Assembly: GCA_030526225.1 (NCBI GenBank)
Contig: JAUNDF010000010.1
Span: forward strand, 1-32,000
From: Clostridia bacterium
GTDB lineage: Bacteria; Bacillota; Clostridia; Christensenellales; Aristaeellaceae
Direction of reading: 5' to 3'
Length of the DNA stretch: 32,000 bases
The translations under genes and the position numbers were made by a program. The number at the start of each line of letters is the position of its first letter. The first letter of the stretch is position 1. The notes under the pieces were generated by a model. It was not told where the DNA came from and did no database searches. It was given only the letters and a program-made list of their open reading frames with translations. Positions 825 through 25,091 of the stretch are shown one piece after another.

Positions 825-900
<76 letters not shown>

Positions 901-910
901 TTTTTTATTT

Positions 911-956
911 CCCGCAATTCCTTGTACAGCAAGGGGTTGCGGGGTTTTTGTTTTTG
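911..956 (+). terminator. Rho-independent terminator after tRNA-Thr
   Basis: Stem cccgcaa...ttgcggg with inner ccttg/caagg pairing, followed by gtttttgttttt. Confidence 0.7.
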
Positions 957-1075
957 CTGGTGTTCTGCTCTTTTTGAAACCTGCCTGTCAAAACCCTTGA
1001 GCAGGGTAATACTTTGATGATGCCGGATTGGTCAAACGATATTCGCTCCCGCATTCCCTGCACTTCTGACCCCGA

Positions 1076-1105
1076 TTGACTTTCCCGCACCATGCCATAT
1101 ATAAT
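1076..1105 (+). promoter_or_regulatory. Candidate sigma-A promoter for the mop leader
   Basis: TTGACT (1076-1081), 18-nt spacer, TATAAT (1100-1105). The predicted start falls just before the 5' arm of the leader's outer stem. Confidence 0.45.
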
Positions 1106-1110
1106 ATCCA

Positions 1111-1268
1111 TCGGAAGGATTATGAGTTCATACCTGTTTTATGCCGATGAAACATTCGGGATGATGCAGGGGGAAGCATCCTTTCGCACGCGGGAAGGCG
1201 CTGCAGCCGTCCCTGCATCGGTGCCGATGAAAAACGCGGCATGGTGCGGGCAGACATCATCCTTCCGA
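1111..1268 (+). promoter_or_regulatory. Structured 5' leader upstream of mop. Candidate riboswitch, possibly of the Moco/Tuco class (class not verified).
   Basis: Perfect 10-bp outer helix tcggaaggat (1111-1120) / atccttccga (1259-1268). Nested perfect 9-bp helix gatgcaggg (1163-1171) / ccctgcatc (1211-1219). Duplicated tgccgatgaaa boxes at 1142-1152 and 1222-1232. The 3' arm ends 8 nt before the mop ribosome binding site. Confidence 0.4.
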
Positions 1269-1294
1269 ATATCAAAAAAGGAGTGTACCCCAAA

Positions 1295-1507
1295 ATGAAA
1301 ATCAGCGCACGCAATCAGCTGAAGGGCACCGTTGTGGCCATCGAAGAGGGTGCCGTGAACGGCATCGTCAAGATTGACATCGGCGCCGGCAACGTCATCA
1401 GCTCCACCATCTCCATGGTCTCCATCAAGGAACTGGGCCTGGAGGTCGGCAAGACTGCTTATGCCATCGTGAAGGCTACTTCCGTGATGGTCGGCGTGGA
1501 TGACTGA
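1295..1507 (+). CDS. mop: Molybdopterin-binding protein Mop (single TOBE/Mop domain, 70 aa)
   Basis: MKISARNQLKGTVVAIEEGAVNG...AIVKATSVMVGV is the typical Mop/TOBE sequence. RBS aaaaggag at 1276-1283. Stop TGA. Confidence 0.85.
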   Translation: MKISARNQLKGTVVAIEEGAVNGIVKIDIGAGNVISSTISMVSIKELGLEVGKTAYAIVKATSVMVGVDD

Positions 1508-1542
1508 TTCATGAAGGCTTGAGGCTCCGCAACGCCTCGGAG

Positions 1543-1575
1543 GACTGCTCTCGGGAATGAGGGCAGTCTTTTTTA
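1543..1575 (+). terminator. Rho-independent terminator after mop
   Basis: Stem gactgc...gcagtc followed by tttttt (1569-1574). The GC-rich to AT-rich composition break lies immediately downstream. Confidence 0.7.
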
Positions 1576-1747
1576 TTGTGATATTTGATTTGTCTAGTAT
1601 AAGTTTTTAAGAAGCAGAATTATTGATTGATAAACAAAAGGTTTATACAGTCCAATAGATGTTGGAGTGAAAGTGTTTTACTTTTGTAAATTAATATGAT
1701 ATTATATTAATAAATAAACAAGTAATTGCGTTAAGGAGAGAGAAATA

Positions 1748-3100
1748 ATGAAAAAACATCTCATCGCAACATGTACAATTGTAGTTTTCTCCATCCTGAT
1801 ATTGTCTTCCGTTTGTTTAGCAGACAATGTTGTTAAAGCGTCATTCGTTCATAATGGAATGGAGTTTAAACTATTTTAGAGTGGAACAGCAGAACTTGTA
1901 AAAGTTCGAGATACGCGGTGCGTTAATTTTGAAATACCATCAACAGTAGAAGGATATCTTGTTACAACTATAAATAGCGCTGCTTTTTCAGATTGTAAAT
2001 CATTGGATATATTAATTATTCCGGATTCGGTAAGTTAGATAAATGGAAATCCGTTTGTTGACTGCAAGAATGTTCGATTTAGCATATCCGCACAACATCC
2101 TGCGCTTGCTGTTATCGATGGCGTTTTATTCTCAAAACCGGATAAAAGACTGATTTCGTATCCGGCATGGAAAGATAATAAAACATATGAAGTGCCGGAT
2201 GGAATTGTGACAATTGGTGATTGGGCTTTTGCTTATAATGAAAGATTATCAAGCATTATTCTGCCTAATACTGTAAAAACAATTGGAGAAAAGGCATTCA
2301 TATTTTGCAATAGACTATCTAAGATTAATCTGCCAGAGAGCGTAGAAACCATTGGGATAAATCCATTTTATGGATGCAACAAAGTTGATGTTAAAATAAA
2401 TAGCAAACAAGAGCACTATCTTGTGAAGAGTGGAGTGCTTATTTCAAAAAAAGATAGCAGAATGATTAGCTATCTGCTAGGTTCAACAAAAAAGTCTTAT
2501 TCCATACCTAAAAATGTTGAAGTTATTGGCGAGTATGCATTTTCTTGCAATGGTGACTTAAAGTCGATAGAAATGCCTAATAGCGTTAAAAAAATCTGTA
2601 AAGGTGCTTTTTTGGGATGCTATGATCTTCAAACGATTCGTCTTTCTGCTAACATCGAAATCATTGAAGAATAGCTTTTTTATAGCTGTCGTGAACTGAA
2701 AAGAATTGAAATTCCTCAAGGTGTGAAGGCGATTGGGAAAAGTGCGTTTGAAAATTGTGTATACCTCATAAGCGTAAAAATGCCAAATAGCTTAATATAG
2801 ATAGGAGATAGAGCCTTTGCTAACTGTAGTACCTTAACAAGTGTGAACGTTCCGTGCAATGTTACTACTATTGGATGGCGCGCATTTGAACATTGTACAA
2901 ATTTGGAAGAAATAATGATTCCTAAGAGCGTAAATAAAATAGCCTTCGATGCTTTTAAATATTGCGATAAAATAGTTGTGTATGTATAGCCTGATAGTTA
3001 TGCAGAATATGTCTTGCCACTTTCAGGTATACCTACCAACTATAAGGACACTGAAGTCCCTTTGACGAACTCAAGTGACTTTGGATGGCTTAAATAGTAA
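1748..3100 (+). CDS. Secreted BspA-type leucine-rich-repeat protein (450 codons) containing six in-frame TAG codons. It would be a pseudogene under the standard code.
   Basis: ATG at 1748 with RBS aaggagag. Signal peptide MKKHLIATCTIVVFSILILSSVCLA. About 12 repeats of IPxSVxxIGxxAFxxCxxL. I translated the single frame 1748-3100: the only interruptions are TAG at 1877, 2036, 2672, 2798, 2987 and 3095, and the frame ends at TAA 3098-3100. There are no frameshifts. GC is roughly 33 percent by eye. Confidence 0.6.
1877..1879 (+). other. In-frame TAG (candidate sense codon) in the LRR gene
   Basis: Context ...GMEFKLF[TAG]SGTAELV. In frame with ATG 1748 (offset 129). Confidence 0.55.
2036..2038 (+). 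other. In-frame TAG in the LRR gene
   Basis: IPDSVS[TAG]INGNPF aligns with LPESVETIGINPF of a sister repeat. Confidence 0.55.
2672..2674 (+). other. In-frame TAG in the LRR gene
   Basis: NIEIIEE[TAG]LFYSCRELKRIEIP. The repeat register continues across the codon. Confidence 0.55.
2798..2800 (+). other. In-frame TAG in the LRR gene
   Basis: MPNSLI[TAG]IGDRAFANC aligns with MPNSVKKICKGAFLGC. Confidence 0.55.
2987..2989 (+). other. In-frame TAG in the LRR gene
   Basis: Context KIVVYV[TAG]PDSYAEYV. Confidence 0.5.
3095..3097 (+). other. In-frame TAG immediately preceding the TAA of the LRR gene
   Basis: ...GWLK[TAG][TAA]. It is either a tandem stop or a final sense codon before the true TAA stop. 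Confidence 0.35.
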
Positions 3101-3129
3101 ATAATTGACCGAAATTTATATAAAACCCC

Positions 3130-3158
3130 TTGCATTCCCCGCTCACTTATGCTACAAT
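3130..3158 (+). promoter_or_regulatory. Candidate sigma-A promoter (extended -10) for the BFD/Dabb pair
   Basis: TTGCAT (3130-3135), 17-nt spacer ending in TGc, TACAAT (3153-3158). Confidence 0.5.
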
Positions 3159-3235
3159 AAAGCCAGAAAGAGAGAGAAAGAAAAGGTCACAGGGAGTGAC
3201 CGGAAAATGATGAGAAGGAGGCGATTCCATTGGAT

Positions 3236-3406
3236 ATGGAAGAAACTGTGTGCTTCTGCGCTGACGTGAACGTAGGACAGATAAAGGCTGCTGTGGAAGC
3301 AGGCGCAACCACGGTAGAGGCTGTGGGTGAAGCCACCGGCGCCGGGACCCATTGCGGTGGCTGCCAGGAGCGAATCGCTGAGTTGATCGCGGAGTTCACC
3401 AAGTAA
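3236..3406 (+). CDS. BFD-like [2Fe-2S]-binding domain protein (56 aa; too short for the ORF track)
   Basis: Hand translation gives MEETVCFCADVNVGQIKAAVEAGATTVEAVGEATGAGTHCGGCQERIAELIAEFTK, with the CxC...CxxC pattern of BFD-like domains. GGAGG at 3217-3221. An alternative in-frame TTG start lies at 3230. The TAA stop overlaps the next ATG (TAATG). Confidence 0.65.
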   Translation: MEETVCFCADVNVGQIKAAVEAGATTVEAVGEATGAGTHCGGCQERIAELIAEFTK

Positions 3407-3699
3407 TGAAGCATTGTATTCTGTGCAAGTTTAAACCCGAGGTAAAACAAACAGATTGGCAGGCGATGCTGCCTGACATAGAGAAAATCTTTGATAAAAC
3501 ACTGTCCATCGACGGCGTAGAACAGGTAGAGCTGATAACCAACTGCGTGGATCGCGACAATCGCTATGATTTACTGATTCGCATGACCATGACCCGAGAA
3601 GCCCTGCCGGCTTATGATGCTTGCCCTGCCCATGCCGAGTGGAAAAACAGTTACGGAAATAAGCTGGAAAAGAAAGCCATTTTCGACTACGAAGCTTGA
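3406..3699 (+). CDS. Dabb (stress-responsive alpha/beta barrel) domain protein
   Basis: 97 aa: MKHCILCKFKPEV...DLLIRMTMTREALPAYDACPAHAEWK, a Dabb-like pattern. Translationally coupled to the upstream gene. Confidence 0.7.
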   Translation: MKHCILCKFKPEVKQTDWQAMLPDIEKIFDKTLSIDGVEQVELITNCVDRDNRYDLLIRMTMTREALPAYDACPAHAEWKNSYGNKLEKKAIFDYEA

Positions 3700-3730
3700 A
3701 TGAACCTTTATAACCAAATGACCGACCGAC

Positions 3731-3756
3731 ACGCTCCCGCAAGGGAGCGTTTTTTG
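3731..3756 (+). terminator. Rho-independent terminator
   Basis: acgctccc / gcaa loop / gggagcgt, followed by ttttt. Confidence 0.8.
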
Positions 3757-3787
3757 TATGTATTGCAGAGAAACAGGCTGATTTTGA

Positions 3788-10171: not shown

Positions 10172-12424
10172 TTGGAGCATGTGTAGGCCGGTGTCACCGG
10201 GACCATCTATCGCAATGAGGACAACGGGTATACTATCCTGACTGCCCGGGCCGGGCGCAGCGAAATCACCGTGGTGGGGACGCTCCCTGCCCTGTCCCCG
10301 GGGGAGCAGTGCGTGTTCCATGGCGACTGGGTGGAGCATCCGCAGTATGGGCGGCAGCTGAAGTGCACGGGCTGTGAAATCAAAAAGCCCACCACCCTGC
10401 TGGGCATTGAGCGGTATCTGGGCTCGGGGCTGATTCGCGGCGTGGGCCCTTCCACCGCCAAGCAGATTGTGGAAACCTTCGGCGAGGAAACGCTGACCAT
10501 CCTCAGCGAGCATCCGGAGCGGCTGCAGGAGGTCCCCGGCATGGGGCGCAAGCGCTGGCGGGTGATTGCGGAAAACTTTCAGGAGCAGAACGCCATGCGG
10601 GAATCCATGGTGTTTCTGCAGTCCTACGGCATTTCCCCCAACCTGTCGGTAAAAATCAGCCGGCTGTACGGCGACAGGACCGCCGATGTGATTAAAAACA
10701 ACCCCTACCGCCTTTGCGAGGATTTGGAAGGCGTGGGCTTTCAGACGGCGGACCGCATCGGCATGGCCATCGGCATTGCCGCGGACAGCGAGTTCCGCAT
10801 CCAGTCGGCGCTGAAGTACATGCTGCGGGAGGCCTCCGTCTCCATGGGCCATGTGTATCTGCCCCTGCGGGAGCTGGTAACGAAAACCGCCCAGCTGCTG
10901 CGCACGGAGGAGGCGCTGGTATCCCGGCAGGTGAAAACGCTGATGCTGCGGCGGGACATCATCTGCAAGCAGGAGGAGGGCGAGGAGGACATCCGCGTGT
11001 ATCTCGCCGCCTTTGACAGCGCCGAGAGCGAGGTGGCCAAGCGCCTGTGCGAGCTGATTGCCTCCCTTGCCCGGGAAGAAAACCCCCAGGCGGAGCAGGA
11101 CATCGACCGGTTTGAAAAGCGCCACGGCATCCACTTTTCCGCCCAGCAGAGAAAGGCCATCACCATGGCCATGGAGATGGCCCTGAAAAACCAGATCGTG
11201 GTGATTACCGGCGGCCCCGGCACCGGCAAAACAACGATTATCAACTGCATCATCTCCCTGCTTTCGCGCGATGGGGAGGTGAAGCTGTGCGCCCCCACCG
11301 GCCGCGCCGCCAAGCGCATGACATAGGCCACCGGCGTGGAGTCGAAGACCATCCACCGCCTGCTGGAATACGGCGGGGACGACGGCGCCTTTGCCCGGGA
11401 TCAGGATAACCCCATCGAGGGCGACTGCGTGATTGTGGACGAGACCTCCATGGTGGATTTGATGCTGATGCGCTCCCTGCTGCGGGCCATTGAGCCGGGG
11501 ACAAAGCTGATTCTGGTGGGCGATGCCGACCAGCTGCCCAGCGTGGGCGCGGGCAATGTGCTGGGGGATATCCTCGACAGCGGCATTGTGCCTGTGTGCC
11601 GCCTGACGGACATCTACCGGCAGGATGAACAGAGCCGCATTGTGGTCAATGCCCACCGCATCAACCGCGGAGAAATGCCCCTGCTCAACGAAAAGGGCAC
11701 GGATTTCTTCTTCGAGCGCAAGGATTCCTTTGCCCAGACGGCCCAGACCATTGTGCAGCTGATGACCAAACGGCTGCCCGCGTTTTTGAAATTCCCGGAG
11801 GATGAAACTGCGGACCGCGCCGTCCGGAGCATACAGGTGCTGGCACCGGCGAAAAAGGGCGAGTGCGGCGTTCTGGTGCTCAACACCATGCTGCAGGAAG
11901 CCCTCAATCCCCCCGCGGCGGACAAGCCGTTTATCAAATACGGCGAAACCATCTTCCGCCTTGGGGACAAGGTGATGCAGACCAAAAACGACTACCAGAT
12001 TGAGTGGCGCAAGGAAAGCCGCCTTGGCTGGGAGGACGGCAAGGGCGTGTTCAACGGCGACGTGGGCTACATCACTGCGGTGGATGAGGAGGAGCACTGC
12101 CTCACGGTCCTCTTTGATGAGGAAAAGGAAGTGGTGTACCAGTCCGCTCAGCTGGAAAATCTGGATCTGGCCTACTGCCTGTCGGTGCACAAGAGCCAGG
12201 GCAGCGAGTTCCCGGTGGTGATTATGCCCGTGGTGGGCGGCTCCAGCATGCTTTTGACCAGAAACCTGTTCTACACCGCCCTGACCCGTGCGCGGAGTCT
12301 GGTGGTGCTGGTGGGCCGGGAGGAAATCATCCGGCAGATGACGCAGAACAATCACATTCAGAAGCGGTACACCTCTCTGGCAGGGCGGCTGCGCATGATG
12401 GGTGCGCTGCTGCCCAAAGAGTGA
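10172..12424 (+). CDS. recD2: RecD2-type ATP-dependent DNA helicase (750 codons) with two in-frame TAG codons
   Basis: TTG 10172 lies 9 nt after aaaaaggagg. The N-terminal GTIYRNEDNGYTIL motif lies between TAG 10184 and the first standard-code start. HhH region, Walker A ITGGPGTGKTT, APTGRAAKRMT[TAG]ATGVESKTIHRLL, and helicase motifs through SVHKSQGSEF. ORFs 10271..11326 and 11336..12424 share one frame. Stop TGA. Confidence 0.8.
10184..10186 (+). other. In-frame TAG (candidate sense codon), recD2 codon 5
   Basis: ttg gag cat gtg TAG gcc ggt gtc acc ggg acc atc tat cgc aat gag gac aac ggg. The conserved N-terminal peptide follows it. Confidence 0.55.
11324..11326 (+). other. In-frame TAG in recD2, at a position that is Glu in RecD2 homologs as I recall them
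   Basis: GRAAKRMT[TAG]ATGVESKTIHRLL, compared with the family pattern GRAAKR(L/M)(S/T)E.TG..A.TIHRLL recalled from memory. Confidence 0.65.
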
Positions 12425-16020: not shown

Positions 16021-16419
16021 ATGGCGCGGGAAAACCGCATCACCCTGTGTCTGCCGGGGCAGGCCGATCATTCACTGGTGCTTCGCACCATGGTAGGCGG
16101 CGTGGCCTATCTGTATGACCTGAGCGTGGATGACATGGATGATCTTCGCGCCGCCGCGGATGAGGCCTTCGACTGCCTGCTGCATCAGGGCAGCACGGTG
16201 GAAAGCATCACCACCGACATTCTCCGGGAGGATGGCCGCGTATCAGCATTGCTGACGGCTGCCTTCGGGGAAAAGCAAACATCCGCCCCCGGCGAAGAGG
16301 AGAACGAAATCTCGCTGGCGGTACTGAAAACCATCATGCCCGATGTACAGCTGACCGTGGACGGGGAGGGCCGGATTGCGGCCATCCGCCTGACGCTTTC
16401 CACCGGGAGGGCATCATGA
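16021..16419 (+). CDS. Small SpoIIAB/RsbW-like anti-sigma-factor-like protein with a degenerate ATPase N-box
   Basis: ATG 16021 lies 8 nt after GGGAGG. AADEAFDCLLHQG resembles the anti-sigma kinase box E-A-x-x-N-A-x-x-H-G, but Cys replaces the Asn. The stop overlaps the sigma-factor start (ATGA). Confidence 0.45.
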   Translation: MARENRITLCLPGQADHSLVLRTMVGGVAYLYDLSVDDMDDLRAAADEAFDCLLHQGSTVESITTDILREDGRVSALLTAAFGEKQTSAPGEEENEISLAVLKTIMPDVQLTVDGEGRIAAIRLTLSTGRAS

Positions 16420-17144
16420 TGGAAGAAGACATCAATGCCCTGCTGGCAGGGTATGCCCGTGCACCGGAGCCGGAGACGCTGAACCGGCTGACGGAGCATT
16501 TTCTGCCCCTGTCGCGGCAGGTGGCGGCCAAATTCTATGGGCGCGGTGCCGAAATGGAGGATTTGCGGCAGGTGGCAGCCATGGCGCTGATGAACGCCAT
16601 CAAACGCTTCGACCCTGACAAGGGGGTCAAGTTTACCACCTTCGCCGTTACCACCATGGCGGGTGAGGTGCGCAACCACCTGCGGGACAAGGCCGCGCTC
16701 ATTCGCCCCTCCCGTGATTTGCGGGAAAAGGCGGCGCAGGTGAACAAAATCACCGACCGGCTGGCCCAGCAGCTGCTGCGGGAGCCTACCGTGCGTGAAA
16801 TTGCCGGCGAAATGAACATCACCCCCGATGAGCTGCTGCACATCCTCGACAGCCGGGAAAAGCTGGAGGTTGCCTCCCTGAACGAAATCTCCGGGGAGGA
16901 TGACCGCGCCCTTGAGGAGCGGCTTGGTCAGACCGACGGCGGCTACGAGGCCGTGGAGCAGCGGGACATGTGGCAGTGGATTATGCGCCAGCTGACCGGG
17001 CAGGAGCAATTGCTGGTCCGGCTGCGTTATGTATAGCGGATGGGTCAGCGGGAGTGCGCCGCCAGAATGAACCTGTCGCAAATGCAGGTCAGCCGCATGG
17101 AGCGGCGCATGCTGGCGCGCATCCGCAGCAAAATGACATCATAA
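16416..17144 (+). CDS. Group-3 sigma-70 family factor (SigF/SigG/SigB-like, 242 aa) with one in-frame TAG before region 4.2
   Basis: Region 2 (DLRQVAAMALMNAIKRFDPDKGVKFTTFAVTTMAGEVRNHLRD), region 3, then LLVRLRYV[TAG]RMGQRECAARMNLSQMQVSRMERRMLARIRSKMTS. The region 4.2 HTH is encoded only after the TAG. Stop TAA at 17142-17144. Confidence 0.8.
17034..17036 (+). other. In-frame TAG (candidate sense codon) in the sigma factor
   Basis: cgt tat gta TAG cgg atg ggt cag. The HTH follows in the same frame. Confidence 0.65.
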
Positions 17145-17174
17145 ACAAGGATTGAAACCAAGGAGCGTGAAAGG

Positions 17175-18392
17175 ATGTACAGAGAAACACCGCCGATGGC
17201 ACCGCAGCCGAGGAAGAAGCTGCATGCTGTGCAGATTGTCATCATCGTGGTGGCCGTGCTGTTTGCCCTGTGGTACCTGTACAAAACCCTGGTGCCGGCG
17301 GCAACGCCCTATGCCACCATACAGGCAGGCACCCTGGGTGCAAGATACTCCGGCGATGTGCTCATCGTCCGGGATGAGACCCCCTATGATGCCGAGGGCG
17401 TGAGCAGCATCGAGTATGTGGCGGAGGAGGGCAAGGTGGCCCGCAACCGCTCCACCATCTGCAATGTGTTCTCCACCGGTTATTCCACCAAGGAGACCAC
17501 CGCCCTGCAGAACTACCGCGACCAGATCAAGCAGTATCAGCTGCAGCTCATCGGCGAGGAAACCACCTACGATGCCCGCATGGAGCGGCTGGACAGCGAT
17601 GTTTTGTAGCTGGCCCGGGAATTCCGCGCCATGATTGCCGGTCAGCCCGGCAATTTGCTCAATCAGGAAACGCTGCTCAATGCCGCCATCGGCTCCCGTC
17701 AGCTGTATCTGAAGAAAAAGTACGGCTCCGACCAGCGCCTCAGCCGGTTGTATGACGACGAACAGAGCCAGCTGCAGCGCATTGCCAGCTGGACCAAGCA
17801 GTATACCGCCGCGGGCGAGACCATCGTCAGCTTTTATACCGACGGCTATGAATACGGCCTGACCGCCTCCAACTTCCGTGATTTTACCCCGCAATAGGTC
17901 CGGAAGATGATTGCCGGTCAAAAGCCGGAGCTGACCACGGCCCAAAAGGGCAAGACCACCATCTACCGCACCGTGCGTGACGGCGTGTGGTACGCGCTGA
18001 TGCTGGTGAAGGACTCCACATGGAATCCGGTGGAGGGCCAGACCTACGAGCTGAAGCTGGAGCGGGTGGAAAACACCCGTGTGCTGGCCACGGTGGAATC
18101 CTTTACAAGAAACGGCAATGAGCTGCTGGTGCGCCTTGTGGTGCATGACTCCGTGGAGCCGGTGCTGTACATGCGCACCTGTCAGGCAGAGCTGGGCGAT
18201 TATGTGCAGAGCCTGATGGTGCCCAAGCGCGCCATCTATACCCAGGACAACATGACCGGCGTGGTGGTGCTGGACGGTGCCAATCAGCTGTTTGTGCCGG
18301 TGAACATCCTTTTGGAGGACGGCGGCAATGTGTACATCTCCGCCATCACCCAGGGTCTGCTGTATGAAGGGCAGACCGTGATGCTGTTCTGA
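17175..18392 (+). CDS. HlyD-like membrane-anchored protein (405 codons) with two in-frame TAG codons
   Basis: N-terminal TM anchor (VQIVIIVVAVLFALWYLY). ORFs 17175..17609, 17631..17897 and 17907..18392 are in one frame, separated only by TAG codons. Beta-barrel-like C-terminus. The family call is from general resemblance only. Stop TGA. Confidence 0.6.
17607..17609 (+). other. In-frame TAG in the HlyD-like gene
   Basis: Context RLDSDVL[TAG]LAREFRAMIAG. Confidence 0.5.
17895..17897 (+). other. In-frame TAG in the HlyD-like gene
   Basis: Context NFRDFTPQ[TAG]VRKMIAGQKPEL. Confidence 0.5.
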
Positions 18393-19156: not shown

Positions 19157-20356
19157 TTGTCTTTTAAGGATTGGAAACAACAGCTTGCATCCAGGCTGCG
19201 CGGCAAGGGCGCACAGCAGCAGGAGGAAGACCGGTTCTCCGGCTCCTTCAGCGGCTATCATCCTGCCGGCAACCGGGATATGTACGATACATCCCGCATG
19301 GCTGCCCAGCAGCAGGAGCCCCAGCAGGCGGCCTATCAGCCCCAGCAGGAGATGAACGGCATGATGCCCGAGCAGGGCTATGCCCCTCAGATGCAGGGCT
19401 ATACCTGGCAGCAGCAGGCACAGCAGATGAACATGCCGCCCGTGCCCCAGCAGACAACATGGCAGCCCCAGCAGGAGATGCGCCAGCAGACCTCCTCCTG
19501 GCAGACGGCATGGCAGCCCCGTCAGGAGCAGCCCGCCCCCGAAGCGGCAGGCCGCCAGAATCAGCCCCGGCAGGACAACATCAGCTACCTGAATGTCAAC
19601 TTCACCGGCAGTGACGGCCGCGGCTATGTGGGCGTGGAGCGCGCCGTGCTTTTGGCCGGCATCAGCGACTGCAACCGCGTGATTGAATACATGCGCAACA
19701 ACGAGTCGGTCATCCTGAACATGGATAACATCGCCGACGACAAGGAAGTGCAGCGCTGCCTGGATTTCGTATCCGGTGCCGCCTTCACCCTTGAATATAC
19801 CGTCACCAAGCTGAGCCGCAGCAAGCGCATCTACATGCTGTCCCCTGCGGTGATTCTGGTGCTGACCGATGCCGGCATGGCCAACTGGAAGACCGGTGCC
19901 GATGCCCAGCCCCTGCGCGAGCAGGCAGAGGAAAGCCGCGCATGGACCGAGCAGCCCGCCTACGGTGACCGCCGCGCCGCCTATGAAGCACCCTATGCCC
20001 AGCAGAGCTACGGCAATGCTCAGGGCTACACCGCCCGCCAGTCCTATGAGGACATGCAGCAGGGCTACACCATGCAGCAGAGCTATGGCCAGCAGGGCTA
20101 CACGGCCCAGCAGCCCTATTACGATATGCAGCAGGGCTATACCGCCCAGCAGCCCTACTATCAGCAGGGCTATACCATGCAGCAGCCCGCCTATGAGCAG
20201 TATGCCCAGCCCCAGATGACCTTCGGTCAGGTGGCAGCCGTACCGCCCTACAGCACCGGCAGTGTGGATGTATCCGGCGCCGCACCCCGCAGCGCCTATG
20301 ATTCCGATACCCGCCGCGGCTTCTACGGCACGGCGCAGACCCAGCTTGCCCGATAA
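19157..20356 (+). CDS. sepF: SepF-domain cell-division protein with long Gln/Tyr-rich low-complexity extensions
   Basis: Central SepF-like core (VLLAGISDCNRVIEYMRNNESVILNMDNIADDKEVQRCLDFVSGAAFTLEYTVTKLSRSKRIYMLSP). Positioned between yggS and yggT as in Firmicutes division (dcw) clusters. TTG start 8 nt after GGGGG. Stop TAA. Confidence 0.72.
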   Translation: MSFKDWKQQLASRLRGKGAQQQEEDRFSGSFSGYHPAGNRDMYDTSRMAAQQQEPQQAAYQPQQEMNGMMPEQGYAPQMQGYTWQQQAQQMNMPPVPQQTTWQPQQEMRQQTSSWQTAWQPRQEQPAPEAAGRQNQPRQDNISYLNVNFTGSDGRGYVGVERAVLLAGISDCNRVIEYMRNNESVILNMDNIADDKEVQRCLDFVSGAAFTLEYTVTKLSRSKRIYMLSPAVILVLTDAGMANWKTGADAQPLREQAEESRAWTEQPAYGDRRAAYEAPYAQQSYGNAQGYTARQSYEDMQQGYTMQQSYGQQGYTAQQPYYDMQQGYTAQQPYYQQGYTMQQPAYEQYAQPQMTFGQVAAVPPYSTGSVDVSGAAPRSAYDSDTRRGFYGTAQTQLAR

Positions 20357-20368
20357 GGGGGTGGCCTG

Positions 20369-20644
20369 ATGCTGCTGTTGATGCGCATTCTCCGCATGGC
20401 ACTGCTGGTGTATGAGCTGCTGCTCATCGCCTATGTGCTGCTCAACTGGCTCAAGCCCGCCGCCAACCGCTGGACGGAGCTGCTCCGCCGCGTGACCGAG
20501 CCGGTGCTCACGCCCCTTCGGGTGGCCATTGTTTCCCGGCTGCCGGCAAGGTATCAGCCCATTGACTGGTCCCCTGTGGCGGCACTTGCGATTTGTGAAA
20601 TCATCGGCTGGATTCTCGGCAGAATCGCCGCCATTTTCGCATGA
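20369..20644 (+). CDS. yggT: YggT/YlmG-family membrane protein
   Basis: 91 aa with two TM helices. VYELLLIAYVLLNWL...TEPVLTPLR is typical of YggT. The stop overlaps the ylmH start (ATGA). Confidence 0.85.
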   Translation: MLLLMRILRMALLVYELLLIAYVLLNWLKPAANRWTELLRRVTEPVLTPLRVAIVSRLPARYQPIDWSPVAALAICEIIGWILGRIAAIFA

Positions 20645-21390
20645 TTAAGGATACTGCACAGCAGCTGAAGCTGCGGCTGAATCAGCTGGCCCAGCGGGCC
20701 GACAGGCTGTACTGCGCTGTCCCCGGCCGCTTTCTGGCGGCAGAGGAGCAGGCCATGGCACAGGATGCCGCCCGGGATAACGGGGTGGATGTATCCTTTT
20801 GCGGCGGCTGGAGTGATGCATAGCGGGTGCAGGTGTGCTTTCATCCCTTCGGGGAGGAGCCGCTGTTTACCGCCCAATGGGTGGAAGCCAAATGGAACAG
20901 CCGCTTTTCCACCGCGGCCCACAGCGATTTGCTGGGGAGCCTGATGGCCCTTGGCATGGAGCGTGCCTTTCTGGGCGACATCATCGTTGAGGAAGGCCGG
21001 GCACTGGTCTGCGTGATGCCCGAGCTGGCGGCTCGTCTGCCGGTGGAATGGACAAGCGCGGGACGCACGCCCATCTGGGTATCGGTGCTGGGCAGCCCGC
21101 CTGAAATTGCCCCGCCTGAAGGGAAGCAGCTGCGCGACACAGTGCCGTCCCTGCGGCTGGACTGCGTGGTGGCAAGCGGCATGAAGCAATCCCGCACCAA
21201 AGCGGCATAGCTGATTCGTCAGGGGCTGGTGATGGTCAATCATCGCCCGTAGGAACGCTGTGACCGGCTGCTGCAGGAGGGCGCACTGGTATCCATCCGC
21301 CATTTCGGCAGAATCCGTCTGCTGGAGGTGGGGGAACCCACCCGCAAGGACCGGCTGCCCGTGGTGCTGGAAATATTCGCGAAGAAATAA
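20641..21390 (+). CDS. ylmH: YlmH-like S4-domain RNA-binding protein (249 codons) with three in-frame TAG codons
   Basis: GGWSDA[TAG]RVQV matches the YlmH GGY..AER motif. The S4 domain reads LRLDCVVASGMKQSRTKAA[TAG]LIRQGLVMVNHRP[TAG]ERCDRLLQEGALVSIRHFGRIRL. All segments share one frame. Stop TAA at 21388-21390. Confidence 0.75.
20821..20823 (+). other. In-frame TAG in ylmH at the conserved Glu of GGY..AER
   Basis: GGWSDA[TAG]RVQVCFHP, compared with B. subtilis YlmH GGYDRAERKRA (recalled from memory). Confidence 0.65.
21208..21210 (+). other. In-frame TAG in the ylmH S4 domain
   Basis: Context SRTKAA[TAG]LIRQGLVMVN. Confidence 0.6.
21250..21252 (+). other. In-frame TAG in the ylmH S4 domain
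   Basis: Context VNHRP[TAG]ERCDRLLQEGALVSIRHFGR. Confidence 0.6.
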
Positions 21391-22068: not shown

Positions 22069-23169
22069 ATGGCAGACAAGCAGCAGACAACCTGCCCCCG
22101 CGTGGATATCGGCGGTCAGGCAGTGATGGAAGGCGTGATGATGAAGGGCCCCGATGCCATCGCCATCACCGTCAGACGGCCCGATGGCTCCATGGCCGTG
22201 CGCTATGAGCCCTATGTGGCCCTGAGCAAAAAGCACAAGTGGATGGGCTGGCCCGTCATCCGCGGCGCCGTGAACATGGCCAACATGCTGGTCATGGGCA
22301 TGCAGACGCTGGAAACCTCCACCAAGATGCTGGGCATCATGGATGAGGAGCCCACCAAGTTTGAAAAATGGCTGGCAGAGAAGCTGGGCAAGGGCATCGA
22401 CAAGGTGGTCATGGGCATGGCCATGATTCTGGCCGTGATTCTGTCCGTGGGCCTGTTTATCCTTGTGCCCACCGCCGTGGAAAAGGGCATCATTGCCTGG
22501 ACCGGCTCCACCACCGCCGCAACGCTGGTGGGCGGCGTTGTGAAGATTCTGCTGCTCATCGGCTACATGATTTTCTGCGGCATGGTGCCCGATGTGCGCC
22601 GCACCTTCCAGTACCACGGTGCCGAGCACAAGACCGTGTACTGCCACGAGCATGACCTGCCCCTGACCCCCGAAAACGCCAAGGGCTTCACTACCCTGCA
22701 CCCCCGCTGCGGCACCGCATTTTTGCTGATTGTGTTCGTCATCTCCATTCTGATGACGCTGCTCATCGGCCGGGGCATCACCGTGTTTATCTGGCGGTTC
22801 CTGTTCCATCTGGCCATGCTGCCGGTGATTGCAGGCGTCAGCTACGAGGTGCTGAAGGGTCTGGCCCACAGCGACAGCAAGCTGGCCCGTGCGCTCCGCT
22901 GGCCCGGACTGCAGATGCAGCGCCTGACCACCCGCGAGCCCGACGAAAAGATGCTGGAATGCGCCATCGTTTCCATGAATGTGGCCCTGTACGGCCTGCC
23001 CAAAAATGCGCCCAAGAACCGGGACGGCTTCACCATCCTGCACAGCTACAAGGAATCCGAAAAGGGCTATGTGTTTGAAAAGCCCGAGGTGAAGCCGGTT
23101 GCGGAAGCAGCTGAAGCTGTTGCCGAAGAAGCAGATGAAGAAGCGCCTGTTCAGGAGCCCCAGGCATGA
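22069..23169 (+). CDS. DUF1385-family membrane protein (commonly a prmC neighbour)
   Basis: IGGQAVMEGVMMKG...YHGAEHKTV...HPRCGT are hallmarks of DUF1385. The stop overlaps the prmC start (ATGA). Confidence 0.85.
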   Translation: MADKQQTTCPRVDIGGQAVMEGVMMKGPDAIAITVRRPDGSMAVRYEPYVALSKKHKWMGWPVIRGAVNMANMLVMGMQTLETSTKMLGIMDEEPTKFEKWLAEKLGKGIDKVVMGMAMILAVILSVGLFILVPTAVEKGIIAWTGSTTAATLVGGVVKILLLIGYMIFCGMVPDVRRTFQYHGAEHKTVYCHEHDLPLTPENAKGFTTLHPRCGTAFLLIVFVISILMTLLIGRGITVFIWRFLFHLAMLPVIAGVSYEVLKGLAHSDSKLARALRWPGLQMQRLTTREPDEKMLECAIVSMNVALYGLPKNAPKNRDGFTILHSYKESEKGYVFEKPEVKPVAEAAEAVAEEADEEAPVQEPQA

Positions 23170-24008
23170 CACCCAGACAGCTGATTCGCGAAACGGCGAA
23201 GCAATTTCAGGCGGCGGGTGTGCCCGATGCCCTGCTGGATGCATCCCTGCTGCTGGCCCACCTGACCGGCATGGAGCCCATGGCCCTGCGGCTGGATGAG
23301 GATACACAGCTGGCGGAGGACATCCTCCGGCAATACGCACAGCTGGCCCGGCGCCGCTGTCAGCGCGAACCCTTGCAATATCTGACCGGGGAAGTTGTCT
23401 TCCTCGGTCGTGTTTTCCATGTGGACAGCCGCGTGCTGATTCCCCGGCCCGAAACGGAGCTGCTGGTGGAATTAGCCGCATCAGAGCTGAAAAAGCACGG
23501 TGCGGGTGCCAAGGCCCTTGACCTGTGCTGCGGCAGCGGCTGCATCGGCGTATCCCTTGCACTATAGGTGCCGGGGAGCGAGGTGCATCTGTCCGATTTA
23601 TCTGCCGATGCACTGGCGGTGACCGGCATCAACGCCGAAGCCCTTGCGGCAAAGGTACAGCTGCATCACGGCGATATGTTTGCGCCGCTGGAGGGTGAAC
23701 GGTTCCACGTGCTGGTGTCCAATCCGCCGTATATCCCCGCGGAGGATTGCCGTCAGCTGCAGGCAGAGGTCCTGCGGGAGCCCATGACCGCCCTTGACGG
23801 CGGCGAGGACGGGTACGATTTCTACCGCACCATCGCAAAGGAAGCGCCCCGTCATCTGCTGCCCGGCGGTGCCCTCTTTCTGGAGATCGGCTGGGATCAG
23901 GCCGAAGGGGTGTGCCGCCTGCTGAGGGAAGCCGGCATGGTGCAGGTGACAAGCCATCAGGACTACAACGGCATTAGCCGCATGGTGGAAGCCCACATGG
24001 CTGATTGA
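23166..24008 (+). CDS. prmC: Release-factor glutamine N5-methyltransferase PrmC/HemK (280 codons) with one in-frame TAG
   Basis: EPLQYLTGEVVFLGRVFHVDSRVLIPRPETE, SAM motif DLCCGSGCIGVSLAL[TAG]VPGSEVHLSDLS, and the catalytic NPPY (VSNPPYIP), which lies downstream of the TAG. ORFs 23166..23567 and 23568..24008 share one frame. Stop TGA. Confidence 0.8.
23565..23567 (+). other. In-frame TAG (candidate sense codon) in prmC
   Basis: gca cta TAG gtg ccg ggg. It aligns with the E of E. coli PrmC ALASERPDCEI (recalled from memory). Confidence 0.62.
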
Positions 24009-24038
24009 GTTTGAACGACGCAAAAGGATGAAGAAGCA

Positions 24039-25091
24039 ATGAAAACGCAAGTGCTGGGCCCCGCGCAGGAGAATCTGCAGGCCGCGGCTGAGCTGCTCCG
24101 AAGCGGGCAGCTGGTGGCCTTTCCTACGGAAACGGTGTACGGTCTGGGTGCCAATGCCTTTGACAAGGATGCGGTGCTGTCCATCTTTGCCGCCAAGGAC
24201 CGCCCTGCAGATAATCCCCTGATTGTGCACGTGTGGTGCCGGGAGCAGCTGAAGGACATCTGCGAGGTATCCGAAACGGCAGAAAAGCTGATGGATGCCT
24301 TCTGGCCCGGCCCGCTGACCATCCTGATGCCGCGGAAGGAATCCATCCCCCTGGAGGTGACCGCGGGTCTGCCCACGGTGGCGGTGCGCATGCCCTCCCA
24401 TCCGGTGGCGGCGGCACTGCTGAAGGCTTGCAATGTGCCCGTGGCGGCACCCAGCGCCAATCGCTCCGGCAAGCCCAGCCCCACCTCTGCACGGTATGTG
24501 TATCAGGATATGGATGGCCGCATCCCCATGATTATCGACGGCGGGGACTGCGATGTGGGCCTTGAGTCCACGGTGCTGGATATCGGCCACGGCAAGCCCT
24601 GCATCCTCCGTCCCGGCGGCGTGACCCGGGATATGCTGGAAAAAGTGCTGGGTGAGGTGGATGTGGCCGGCAGCGTACTGCGCCCCCTGCAGCAGGGCGA
24701 GGTGGCCCTGTCCCCCGGCATGCGCTACAAGCACTACGCCCCCAACGGTCAGGTGGTGCTGGTGGAAGGGGAGGAGCAGCAGGTGGTTGGGGCACTGCGC
24801 CGCTTGTGTGAAGAGGCCGCGCAAAACGGTCACAAGAGCTGTGTGATGTGCTTTACCGAGCATGCGGAACAGCTGGCGGATTGCCATCCCTTCGATCTGG
24901 GCAGCATCCATCGCCCGGAGGAGACCGCCCGCTGTCTGTTTGATACCCTGCGCCGGCTGGATGACGTGGGCATGGATGCCATCTTCAGCGAGGTACTGCC
25001 CCCCGAGGGTATCGGCCTTGCGGTGATGAACCGTCTGGGCCGCGCTGCCGGCTTCCATTCCGTGCAGGCGGAGGATATCCTGCGGGACTGA
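24039..25091 (+). CDS. tsaC: L-threonylcarbamoyladenylate synthase (TsaC/Sua5/YwlC type, with a Sua5 C-terminal domain)
   Basis: VAFPTETVYGLGANAFD, KDRPADNPLIVHV, PGPLTIL, APSANRSGKPSPT. Stop TGA. Confidence 0.9.
   Translation: MKTQVLGPAQENLQAAAELLRSGQLVAFPTETVYGLGANAFDKDAVLSIFAAKDRPADNPLIVHVWCREQLKDICEVSETAEKLMDAFWPGPLTILMPRKESIPLEVTAGLPTVAVRMPSHPVAAALLKACNVPVAAPSANRSGKPSPTSARYVYQDMDGRIPMIIDGGDCDVGLESTVLDIGHGKPCILRPGGVTRDMLEKVLGEVDVAGSVLRPLQQGEVALSPGMRYKHYAPNGQVVLVEGEEQQVVGALRRLCEEAAQNGHKSCVMCFTEHAEQLADCHPFDLGSIHRPEETARCLFDTLRRLDDVGMDAIFSEVLPPEGIGLAVMNRLGRAAGFHSVQAEDILRD

Follow-up and report, generated by a model that had tools for sequence, protein, structure and literature searches.

In-frame UAG codons in an AT-rich leucine-rich repeat gene and an empty prfA slot suggest that UAG is read as a sense codon in an uncultured Clostridia genome

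Introduction

Can a bacterial gene that is crossed by six in-frame TAG codons be intact? The question is raised by a stretch of 32,000 nucleotides (nt; here called the window), positions 1 to 32,000 of contig JAUNDF010000010.1 in assembly GCA_030526225.1, a metagenome-assembled genome (MAG) of an uncultured Clostridia bacterium (Q4C54; nearest named relatives, Aristaeellaceae). Near the left end of the window lies an AT-rich island with a single gene for a predicted secreted, BspA-type leucine-rich repeat (LRR) protein of the LRR_5 family, and it is this gene that carries the TAG codons. An earlier description made from the letters of the DNA (the original prediction) preferred recoding of UAG over decay of the gene and took the island for a foreign cassette. 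Here, these proposals were followed up by computational analysis. The findings suggest that UAG may be decoded in this organism as an amino acid, most likely glutamate; if UAG is decoded in this way, the LRR gene is not a pseudogene.

In bacteria, the stop-codon reassignments recovered by the Codetta screen involved UGA only (PMC8629427), and those recovered by a screen of 2.7 million assemblies were likewise restricted to UGA (10.64898/2026.04.02.715157). Reassignment of UGA to Trp has been described in Actinomycetota (PMC13462651). The use of UAG for Glu together with loss of release factor 1 (RF1) in a bacterium would have no counterpart in the literature searched and would fit no described code. 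If true, it would be a new bacterial genetic code in a free-living, GC-rich gut Firmicute that has dropped RF1, and a natural counterpart of engineered RF1-free strains.

Results

The coding sequence of the LRR protein was placed at 1748..3100 on the forward strand, with an ATG at 1748, 450 sense codons that include the six TAG codons, and a TAA stop at 3098-3100. TAA, TGA and frameshifts were all absent from this frame, and the remaining two forward frames contained 35 and 54 stops. Five of the TAG codons are internal, at codons 44 (1877..1879), 97 (2036..2038), 309 (2672..2674), 351 (2798..2800) and 414 (2987..2989), all on the forward strand. The second and the fourth of these fall at equivalent repeat positions (..SVx*IG). 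In alignments of the protein with its homologues, the column of the first TAG holds D (21 sequences) or E (10 sequences); alignment with the structure 4fs7 places D and E at the third TAG and E at the fourth in all three repeat alignments.

When the TAG codons were read through, the product scored 278.3 bits with Pfam LRR_5 (PF13306; gathering threshold, 27.7; E value, 8e-84) in four matched stretches, and one of these hidden Markov model matches (residues 282-409) spans two TAG codons. Matches among solved structures included 4fs7 (E value, 4e-52), 4gt6 (5e-47) and 6mlx (7e-33) and ranged to 1e-29. The protein shares with the BspA-type LRR_5 surface proteins (4fs7, 4gt6, 4h09, TpLRR of Treponema pallidum [6mlx] and the LRR domain of PcpA of Streptococcus pneumoniae [4cp6]) the 23-residue repeat ..IP.SV..IG..AF..C..L.., a predicted signal peptide and a conserved C-terminal ..SYA..(D)WLxx. 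It differs from them by an identity of at most 41%, by its six TAG codons and by the lack of a visible anchor domain; its closest relative among 5.8e9 proteins was only 38-41% identical. Although divergent, the LRR protein is an ordinary BspA/LRR_5 family member; what is unusual is its coding.

The sixth TAG (codon 450, 3095..3097, forward strand) is the penultimate codon and is followed directly by the TAA. Among 32 homologues with the conserved DWL motif, 30 stop exactly two residues past WL (DWLNN, DWLND, DWLKD). The C-terminus of the window protein is encoded as GWLK-TAG-TAA, which reaches the length of the family if the sixth TAG is translated, but not with GWLK alone. Because the C-terminal length of the family fits only with this TAG as sense, this codon is most readily taken as the final sense codon.

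The first 25 codons (1748..1822, forward strand) encode a predicted signal peptide, MKKHLIATCTIVVFSILILSSVCLA, with cleavage predicted before DN. Hydropathy and inspection by eye identified a positively charged MKKH, a ~20-residue hydrophobic core and a CLA/DN end, with no lipobox. The original prediction of an intact signal peptide is borne out to this extent, the N-terminus having the appearance of one. An anchor domain, such as LPXTG or a choline-binding domain, was not seen. The product is probably a surface or host-binding, adhesin-like factor.

From the codon content of the LRR gene, TAG would account for 23-24% of random nonsense substitutions, and for 11% by G>T changes alone. The finding of TAG at five of five internal sites has a probability of ~6e-4 under random nonsense mutation, with the absence of indels uncounted. 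Because random decay of an AT-rich gene should yield TAA or TGA, the LRR island provides the statistically cleanest evidence in the window for TAG as a sense codon. The density of TAG in this gene, 6 of 450 codons (1.3%), is ~13-fold above the host average of ~0.1%. Its ranking as the highest in the window, as originally claimed, was upheld only narrowly, with ylmH at 3 of 249 codons (1.2%); the claim of an intact 450-codon frame across six TAG codons was upheld in full.

Nine further in-frame TAG codons were found in five host genes, all on the forward strand. The RecD2 helicase gene (10172..12424) carries two, at 10184-10186 (codon 5) and 11324-11326 (codon 380); its start was taken as the TTG at 10172, which gives MEHV*AG here and MEQVEAS in relatives. 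Within 16416..18392, a sigma-70-family gene carries one (17034-17036) and an HlyD-like gene carries two (17607-17609 and 17895-17897). Three are present in ylmH (20641..21390), at 20821-20823, 21208-21210 and 21250-21252, and one in prmC (23565-23567), which together with a 30-nt spacer and tsaC occupies 23166..25091. In all five genes, Pfam domains flank the TAG codons on both sides (for YlmH, the domains YlmH_RBD and S4). The motifs downstream were intact, including the helicase motifs of RecD2, region 4 of the sigma factor and the NPPY motif of PrmC, the latter two being preceded by the respective TAG.

These host genes were compared with those of relatives found by scanning GTDB representative genomes with RecD2 (at most 75% identical; MAGs of ruminant and other gut Clostridia), in which the gene order from RecD2 to DivIVA is syntenic with the window. 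No in-frame stops were found in the relatives' orthologues of the host genes with TAG. Seven of the nine host TAG codons are aligned in relatives with GAG or GAA, the codons for Glu. These codons were present in 45 of 45 relatives at RecD2 codon 380, 7 of 7 at RecD2 codon 5, 7 of 8 at HlyD codon 241, and 5 of 5, 4 of 4 and 4 of 4 at the three YlmH sites. In solved structures, E is found at the RecD2/RecD, HemK and first YlmH sites. Column log-odds at eight of the nine host sites gave +10 nats for Glu, -3 for the runner-up and -6.5 for Gln; Glu also ranked first at the LRR sites, with +2.1. A search with the C-terminal half of RecD2 for lineages in which the protein is split at the same TAG was pursued and discarded: the many matches of ~365 amino acids simply begin with the conserved Met of KRM(T/S)E, and every one of them has E at this position.

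The base 5' of the host in-frame TAG codons is A in six of nine cases and G in three, never C or T, and A makes up only ~8% of third positions. The codon before the TAG has been synonymously changed relative to relatives (ACC GAG to ACA TAG; GCG GAG to GCA TAG). The lack of C before these TAG codons is as expected if the creation of CTAG is disallowed. An A before TAG as a special context for read-through was considered and ruled out, because it equals the genome-wide preference among NTAG tetranucleotides (ATAG, 44%; GTAG, 54%; CTAG, 0).

All 32 gene ends in the window use TAA (17) or TGA (15), and none uses TAG (small sample; p ~0.005-0.03). By a crude count, TAG ends ~10-15% of open reading frames in relatives. 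A lack of TAG stops throughout the family was ruled out as an explanation, the closest relatives having ~10% TAG stops. In relatives, the gene order rpmE, DUF1385, prmC, prfA, tsaC was found on five contigs (L058, L060 and L062 to L064) from at least three species, and the prfA gene, of ~1.06 kb, encodes a product with an RF1-type PVT motif and GGQ. Here, 30 nt separate prmC from tsaC/sua5, and prfA is absent from the slot. No RF1-like sequence was detectable in the 32-kb window. The slot between prmC and tsaC has the appearance of a clean deletion of prfA from a conserved operon, with the gene for the release factor methyltransferase PrmC kept and itself bearing a TAG.

The assembly was compared with Logan contigs, which were made from the same run (SRR24915835) by a second assembler. 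Contigs L050 (window 862-2475), L061 (2471-9231), L049 (13308-16573) and L051 (16833-22194) were mapped to the window with 0 mismatches. Together, they cover both boundaries in GC content and 13 of the 15 TAG codons (six of the LRR gene and seven of host genes), with the TAG codons at 11324 in RecD2 and 23565 in prmC lying outside them. Ten TAG-free proteins of the window matched exactly entries within MDO4483349-MDO4483383 of the GenBank MAG (locus tag Q4C54_; contig of 38,163 bp), and each stands alone in its 90% identity cluster.

The treatment of these genes by automatic annotation was uneven. In L050, the Logan gene caller crossed two TAG codons of the LRR gene and gave a product of 242 amino acids (L050 887-1612, equal to window 1748-2473). 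In the GC-rich contigs L051 and L061, genes with TAG were fragmented by the caller. Gaps in the accession numbers suggest that PrmC, and probably the LRR gene, are fragmented in the GenBank annotation as well. Standard annotation that splits or discards TAG-bearing genes leads to wrong estimates of completeness and of pseudogene content for such MAGs.

The island differs from the rest of the window in composition and codon choice. The GC content is 35% in the LRR gene and 61% in the host, and at third codon positions (GC3) it is 28% in the LRR gene and 78% in host genes. The preferences within codon pairs are reversed, with GAA:GAG at 20:4 in the LRR gene versus 266:384 in host genes and AAA:AAG at 28:9 versus 81:324. 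The island also contains two CTAG sites (1594 and 2477), the only ones in the window, whereas 30 kb of host DNA has none against an expectation of ~30. Because CTAG is purged in the closest relatives too (L001, L003, L004, L006 and L020), its avoidance is a trait of the lineage that is unrelated to recoding; restriction or repair are possibilities for its cause. TTAG/CTAA is also nearly absent from host DNA, with 4 observed and ~32 expected. The ratio of TAG to GAG is 6:4 in the LRR gene versus 9:384 in host genes. Where TAG and GAG encode the same residue, a ratio above 1 is close to what mutational equilibrium would give in AT-rich DNA, and the host ratio is far below that equilibrium. The low ratio in host genes suggests that TAG is a young or disfavored codon there.

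Close homologues of the LRR gene were found neither in IMG/VR, INPHARED (DNA and protein) and PLSDB nor among the 5.8e9 proteins (best identity, 41%), and homologues in JGI metagenomes were at most 32% identical. No phage related to the island was found in the searches of IMG/VR and INPHARED. A more distant homologue is carried by a phage genome, IMGVR_UViG_3300032007_000226 (L065), at 2875-3768: a signal-peptide LRR_5 gene of 35% GC content with no in-frame TAG, which shares the internal motif HP.L..I.GVLFSKPDKRLI and ends in ..DWLLE. It sits between the neck and tail-sheath genes of a myovirus head-neck-tail module of 53% GC content. This gene is an AT-rich moron of the same LRR subfamily, which makes a phage route possible for the island. 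Because it lacks TAG codons, it is a precedent for carriage by phage and not a donor.

Discussion

Collectively, the sequence evidence points to an intact foreign LRR gene that would be translated through UAG in a recoded host that lacks RF1, as far as the prfA locus is concerned; we place the probability of this reading at about 0.75. Under the proposed mechanism, RF1 would have been lost from the slot between prmC and tsaC, leaving UAA and UGA, both read by RF2, as the sole terminators in use. A tRNA with the anticodon CUA would insert Glu at UAG, and translation of the LRR gene would run from the ATG at 1748 across six UAG codons to the UAA at 3098. Given a recoded host, the inserted residue is very likely to be Glu, mainly on the evidence of the host genes. 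The preference of the original prediction for recoding over decay agrees with the TAG expectation of 23% in the LRR gene, with the nine host TAG codons, most of them at Glu columns, and with the empty prfA slot.

Several observations weigh against this reading. The columns of two host TAG codons are not Glu columns, with A, T or D in relatives at HlyD codon 145 and H or Q at codon 207 of the sigma factor, and across 120 homologues the column of the PrmC TAG is mostly A or G and otherwise E or D. For the LRR gene, the proposed comparison of homologue codons at the six sites could draw on distant homologues only (30-40% identity); over 120 of them, the five internal columns are variable and Glu is weakly best. 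The host set taken alone is weak evidence (p ~0.02-0.05), TAG being the outcome of 61-68% of random nonsense changes in these GC-rich genes. The sole tRNA of the window is Thr-GGT, with no tRNA(CUA) in the 32 kb, and an RF1 gene could lie in another part of the genome. L050 and L061 overlap by only 5 nt in the middle of the LRR gene (2471-2475), beside the CTAG at 2477, and the join is provided by the GenBank assembly only; uneven coverage, the repeats within the LRR gene or differences between strains may account for the break. No close homologue of the LRR gene was present in any collection searched, and the donor and its code are deduced from composition. Lastly, the lineage is represented by one sample only.

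Under the standard code, the LRR gene and the five host genes would be pseudogenes produced by nonsense hits, as might arise from a G>T mutator or a recent bottleneck. GAG becomes TAG by a single G>T step, the GC-rich host genes favor this stop as stated above, and pseudogenes can be abundant in MAGs of host-associated bacteria. Against this, all 15 in-frame stops are TAG, with no TAA, TGA or frameshift; single genes carry several of them (6, 3, 2 and 2); the AT-rich LRR gene should have received TAG in only 23% of cases (11% by G>T alone); and the domains and motifs downstream are intact. A TAG at RecD2 codon 5 would abolish the whole protein, the sixth TAG of the LRR gene matches the C-terminal length of its family only as sense, and the loss of prfA would be left unexplained. 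Nor did any gene of the window carry the mixture of TAA, TGA and frameshift lesions by which the original prediction would have recognized ordinary decay. We consider decay highly improbable. Still more remote is an artefact of assembly or binning, in which an AT-rich fragment, for example of a recoded phage, was joined to a GC-rich contig or the TAG codons arose as consensus errors. The switch in composition is abrupt and the Logan assembly breaks within the LRR gene, as such a chimera might have it. Each of the GC boundaries, however, lies well inside a Logan contig that reaches unambiguous host genes: L050 runs from the tRNA-Thr region through mop and on into the first 900 nt of the island, and L061 carries the last 660 nt together with 6 kb of host DNA. 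Both match the GenBank contig at all bases, and L051 reproduces TAG codons of host genes. The concern over a chimera at the GC boundaries, raised with the original prediction, is answered by the second assembler, which reproduced both boundaries with 0 mismatches.

UAG might also be read through as a residue other than Glu: as Gln, as in the phage code 15, as pyrrolysine, or as a mixture inserted by near-cognate tRNAs after the loss of RF1. Among natural reassignments of the amber codon, only that to Gln has been documented in gut phages, and Q occurs in some relatives at two of the host columns. Firmicutes form Gln-tRNA via Glu-tRNA(Gln), and by this route the Glu and Gln identities are mechanistically close. 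Yet a single transition turns CAG (362 codons) into TAG, and CAG would be the main source of TAG codons if they specified Gln, and the host TAG codons lie at Glu columns in seven of nine cases and at Gln columns in none. At the RecD2 site, E is invariant across more than 45 relatives and is also found in two structures, and the column log-odds of -6.5 for Gln contrast with +10 for Glu. Pyrrolysine is opposed by the lack of pyl genes and methylamine methyltransferase genes in the window, and the genes with TAG are unrelated ones, encoding a helicase, a sigma factor, YlmH, PrmC, the HlyD-like protein and the LRR protein, largely housekeeping in kind. A residue other than Glu is thus judged improbable, and decoding of UAG as Glu is preferred.

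The view of the island as a horizontally acquired single-gene cassette of little-ameliorated foreign DNA, already advanced from the drop in GC content, is supported by the GC3 of 28% versus 78%, the opposite codon preferences and the only CTAG sites of the window. The original prediction had left open whether a donor used the same code or the gene had resided in the host long enough to accumulate TAG codons. In the latter case, an AT-rich donor with the standard code would have supplied the gene, and six synonymous changes from GAA or GAG to TAG would have followed during a long residence in a recoded host. Host genes do show that drift from GAG to TAG occurs in the lineage, no donor with TAG as sense was found in the collections searched, and the closest phage-borne homologue has no in-frame TAG. 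This course of events nevertheless appears unlikely. The LRR gene has undergone essentially no amelioration and the island retains CTAG and TTAG, which the host lineage purges; TAG makes up 6 of its 10 GAG-or-TAG codons, versus 9 of ~393 in the host; GAA, its main Glu codon, is two substitutions from TAG; and changes so specific to these sites, with no general change in composition, are unexpected under neutral drift. Because a ratio of 6:4 is unlikely to arise after transfer without a shift in composition, a donor that already used TAG as sense is favored. Within the picture of a recoded host, such a donor is probable, a judgment that comes from composition and small numbers and leaves the choice between the two courses short of proof.

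The TAG codons would then most likely have arrived with the LRR gene from an AT-rich gene pool that uses the same code, for which phages or other mobile elements of the recoded lineage would be a plausible source. More specifically, and with odds somewhat below even, the cassette may be cargo from a mobile gene pool that is co-adapted to the UAG-Glu code of an RF1-less lineage and uses TAG near equilibrium. If this were true, the island would be a first glimpse of a recoded mobilome, and the changed code would channel transfer via code-sharing elements rather than isolate the lineage. The LRR island suggests that the same code is used in other genomes or elements, and it bears on the question of code changes as barriers to gene flow and to phage infection.

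The proposed state follows the same logic as the reassignment of UGA to Trp (code 4) or Gly (code 25) with loss of RF2, in which a stop becomes sense, the cognate factor is gone and two stops are left. It differs in the codon (UAG), the factor (RF1) and the inferred residue (Glu), and in that the genome is GC-rich (~60%) and not reduced. Code 15 (TAG to Gln), used by crAss-like and Lak gut phages, resembles it in the presence of in-frame TAG codons in AT-rich, gut-associated DNA, and the Logan caller read the LRR gene through TAG codons as under a TAG-recoded model; in the window, however, the aligned residues are Glu and not Gln, and housekeeping genes of a bacterial chromosome are recoded. 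Peritrich ciliates have a nuclear code in which UAR specifies Glu. In Blastocrithidia, stops of the UAR box are likewise read as glutamate, as is proposed here for UAG. These eukaryotic codes are nuclear and eRF1-based and reassign UAA, whereas the window keeps UAA as its commonest stop (17 of 32). In Escherichia coli strains of the C321.deltaA type, the freed UAG is read by a suppressor tRNA. These engineered, amber-free strains had UAG freed by deletion of prfA (PMC11903333). They are synthetic, whereas here the state would have arisen in nature and UAG would have returned to genes at positions of Glu. With phage morons such as the L065 gene, the island shares the form of an AT-rich single gene with its own promoter-like site and ribosome-binding site; it differs from them in having neither flanking phage genes nor a terminator after the gene.

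Other features of the window

The edges of the island were mapped by composition. In 300-nt windows, the GC content was 0.32-0.36 between 1501 and 3150 versus 0.55-0.66 on both sides, and a scan of the full 32 kb identified the island as the only AT-rich stretch, the remainder lying at 0.51-0.65. The island was accordingly delimited to 1573..3130 (no strand; ~1.56 kb; 32-36% GC content), in line with the original account of a drop after the mop terminator and a recovery at about 3125. Its left edge is formed by the intrinsic terminator (1539..1572, forward strand; a 15-bp stem and a T-run) of the upstream host gene mop (1295-1507, forward strand), which encodes a TOBE domain product identical to MDO4483349.1. 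At its right edge, inspection of the sequence pointed to a probable host promoter at 3130..3158 (forward strand; TTGCAT, 17 nt, TGn-TACAAT) for a BFD-like [2Fe-2S] host gene downstream (3236-3406, forward strand); this site was not among the matches of a consensus promoter scan. Synteny with the nearest relatives (75% identity in RecD2) does not extend to the side of the locus from mop to LysR.

Within the island, a promoter-like site upstream of the LRR gene (1677..1705, forward strand; TTTACT-17-TATTAT with a TG extension) matched 9 of 12 positions in the consensus scan and may serve the gene. Inspection of the sequence also identified a ribosome-binding site, AGGAGAG (1734..1740, forward strand), 7 nt 5' of the ATG. 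No terminator was found 3' of the LRR gene. No integrase or transposase was found in the window, and the flanks contained no convincing att repeats; the search recovered only an imperfect, purine-rich 16-nt pair with 88% identity, at 1733 and 3167, in agreement with the earlier remark that integrase and flanking direct repeats were lacking. In an Rfam search of the island and its flanks, tRNA-Thr was the sole match to a noncoding RNA.

The leader of the BFD-like gene (3159-3235) contains a purine-rich run, AAAGAGAGAGAAAGAA, that resembles the region of the ribosome-binding site of the LRR gene (1733-1748). It also contains a perfect 6-bp hairpin, GGTCAC-AGGGA-GTGACC (3185-3201), which matched no Rfam family. 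On the other side of the island, 662-1294 is a noncoding region of 630 nt with a GC content of 44-52% and the tRNA-Thr(GGT) gene at 825-900; the ~390 nt 5' of mop have neither an open reading frame nor an Rfam match. Elsewhere in the window, SepF (19157-20356) has a long tail rich in Gln and Tyr with repeated QQGYT(A/M)QQ(P/S)Y units, and the partial first open reading frame (2-70) starts with PTAE tandem repeats.

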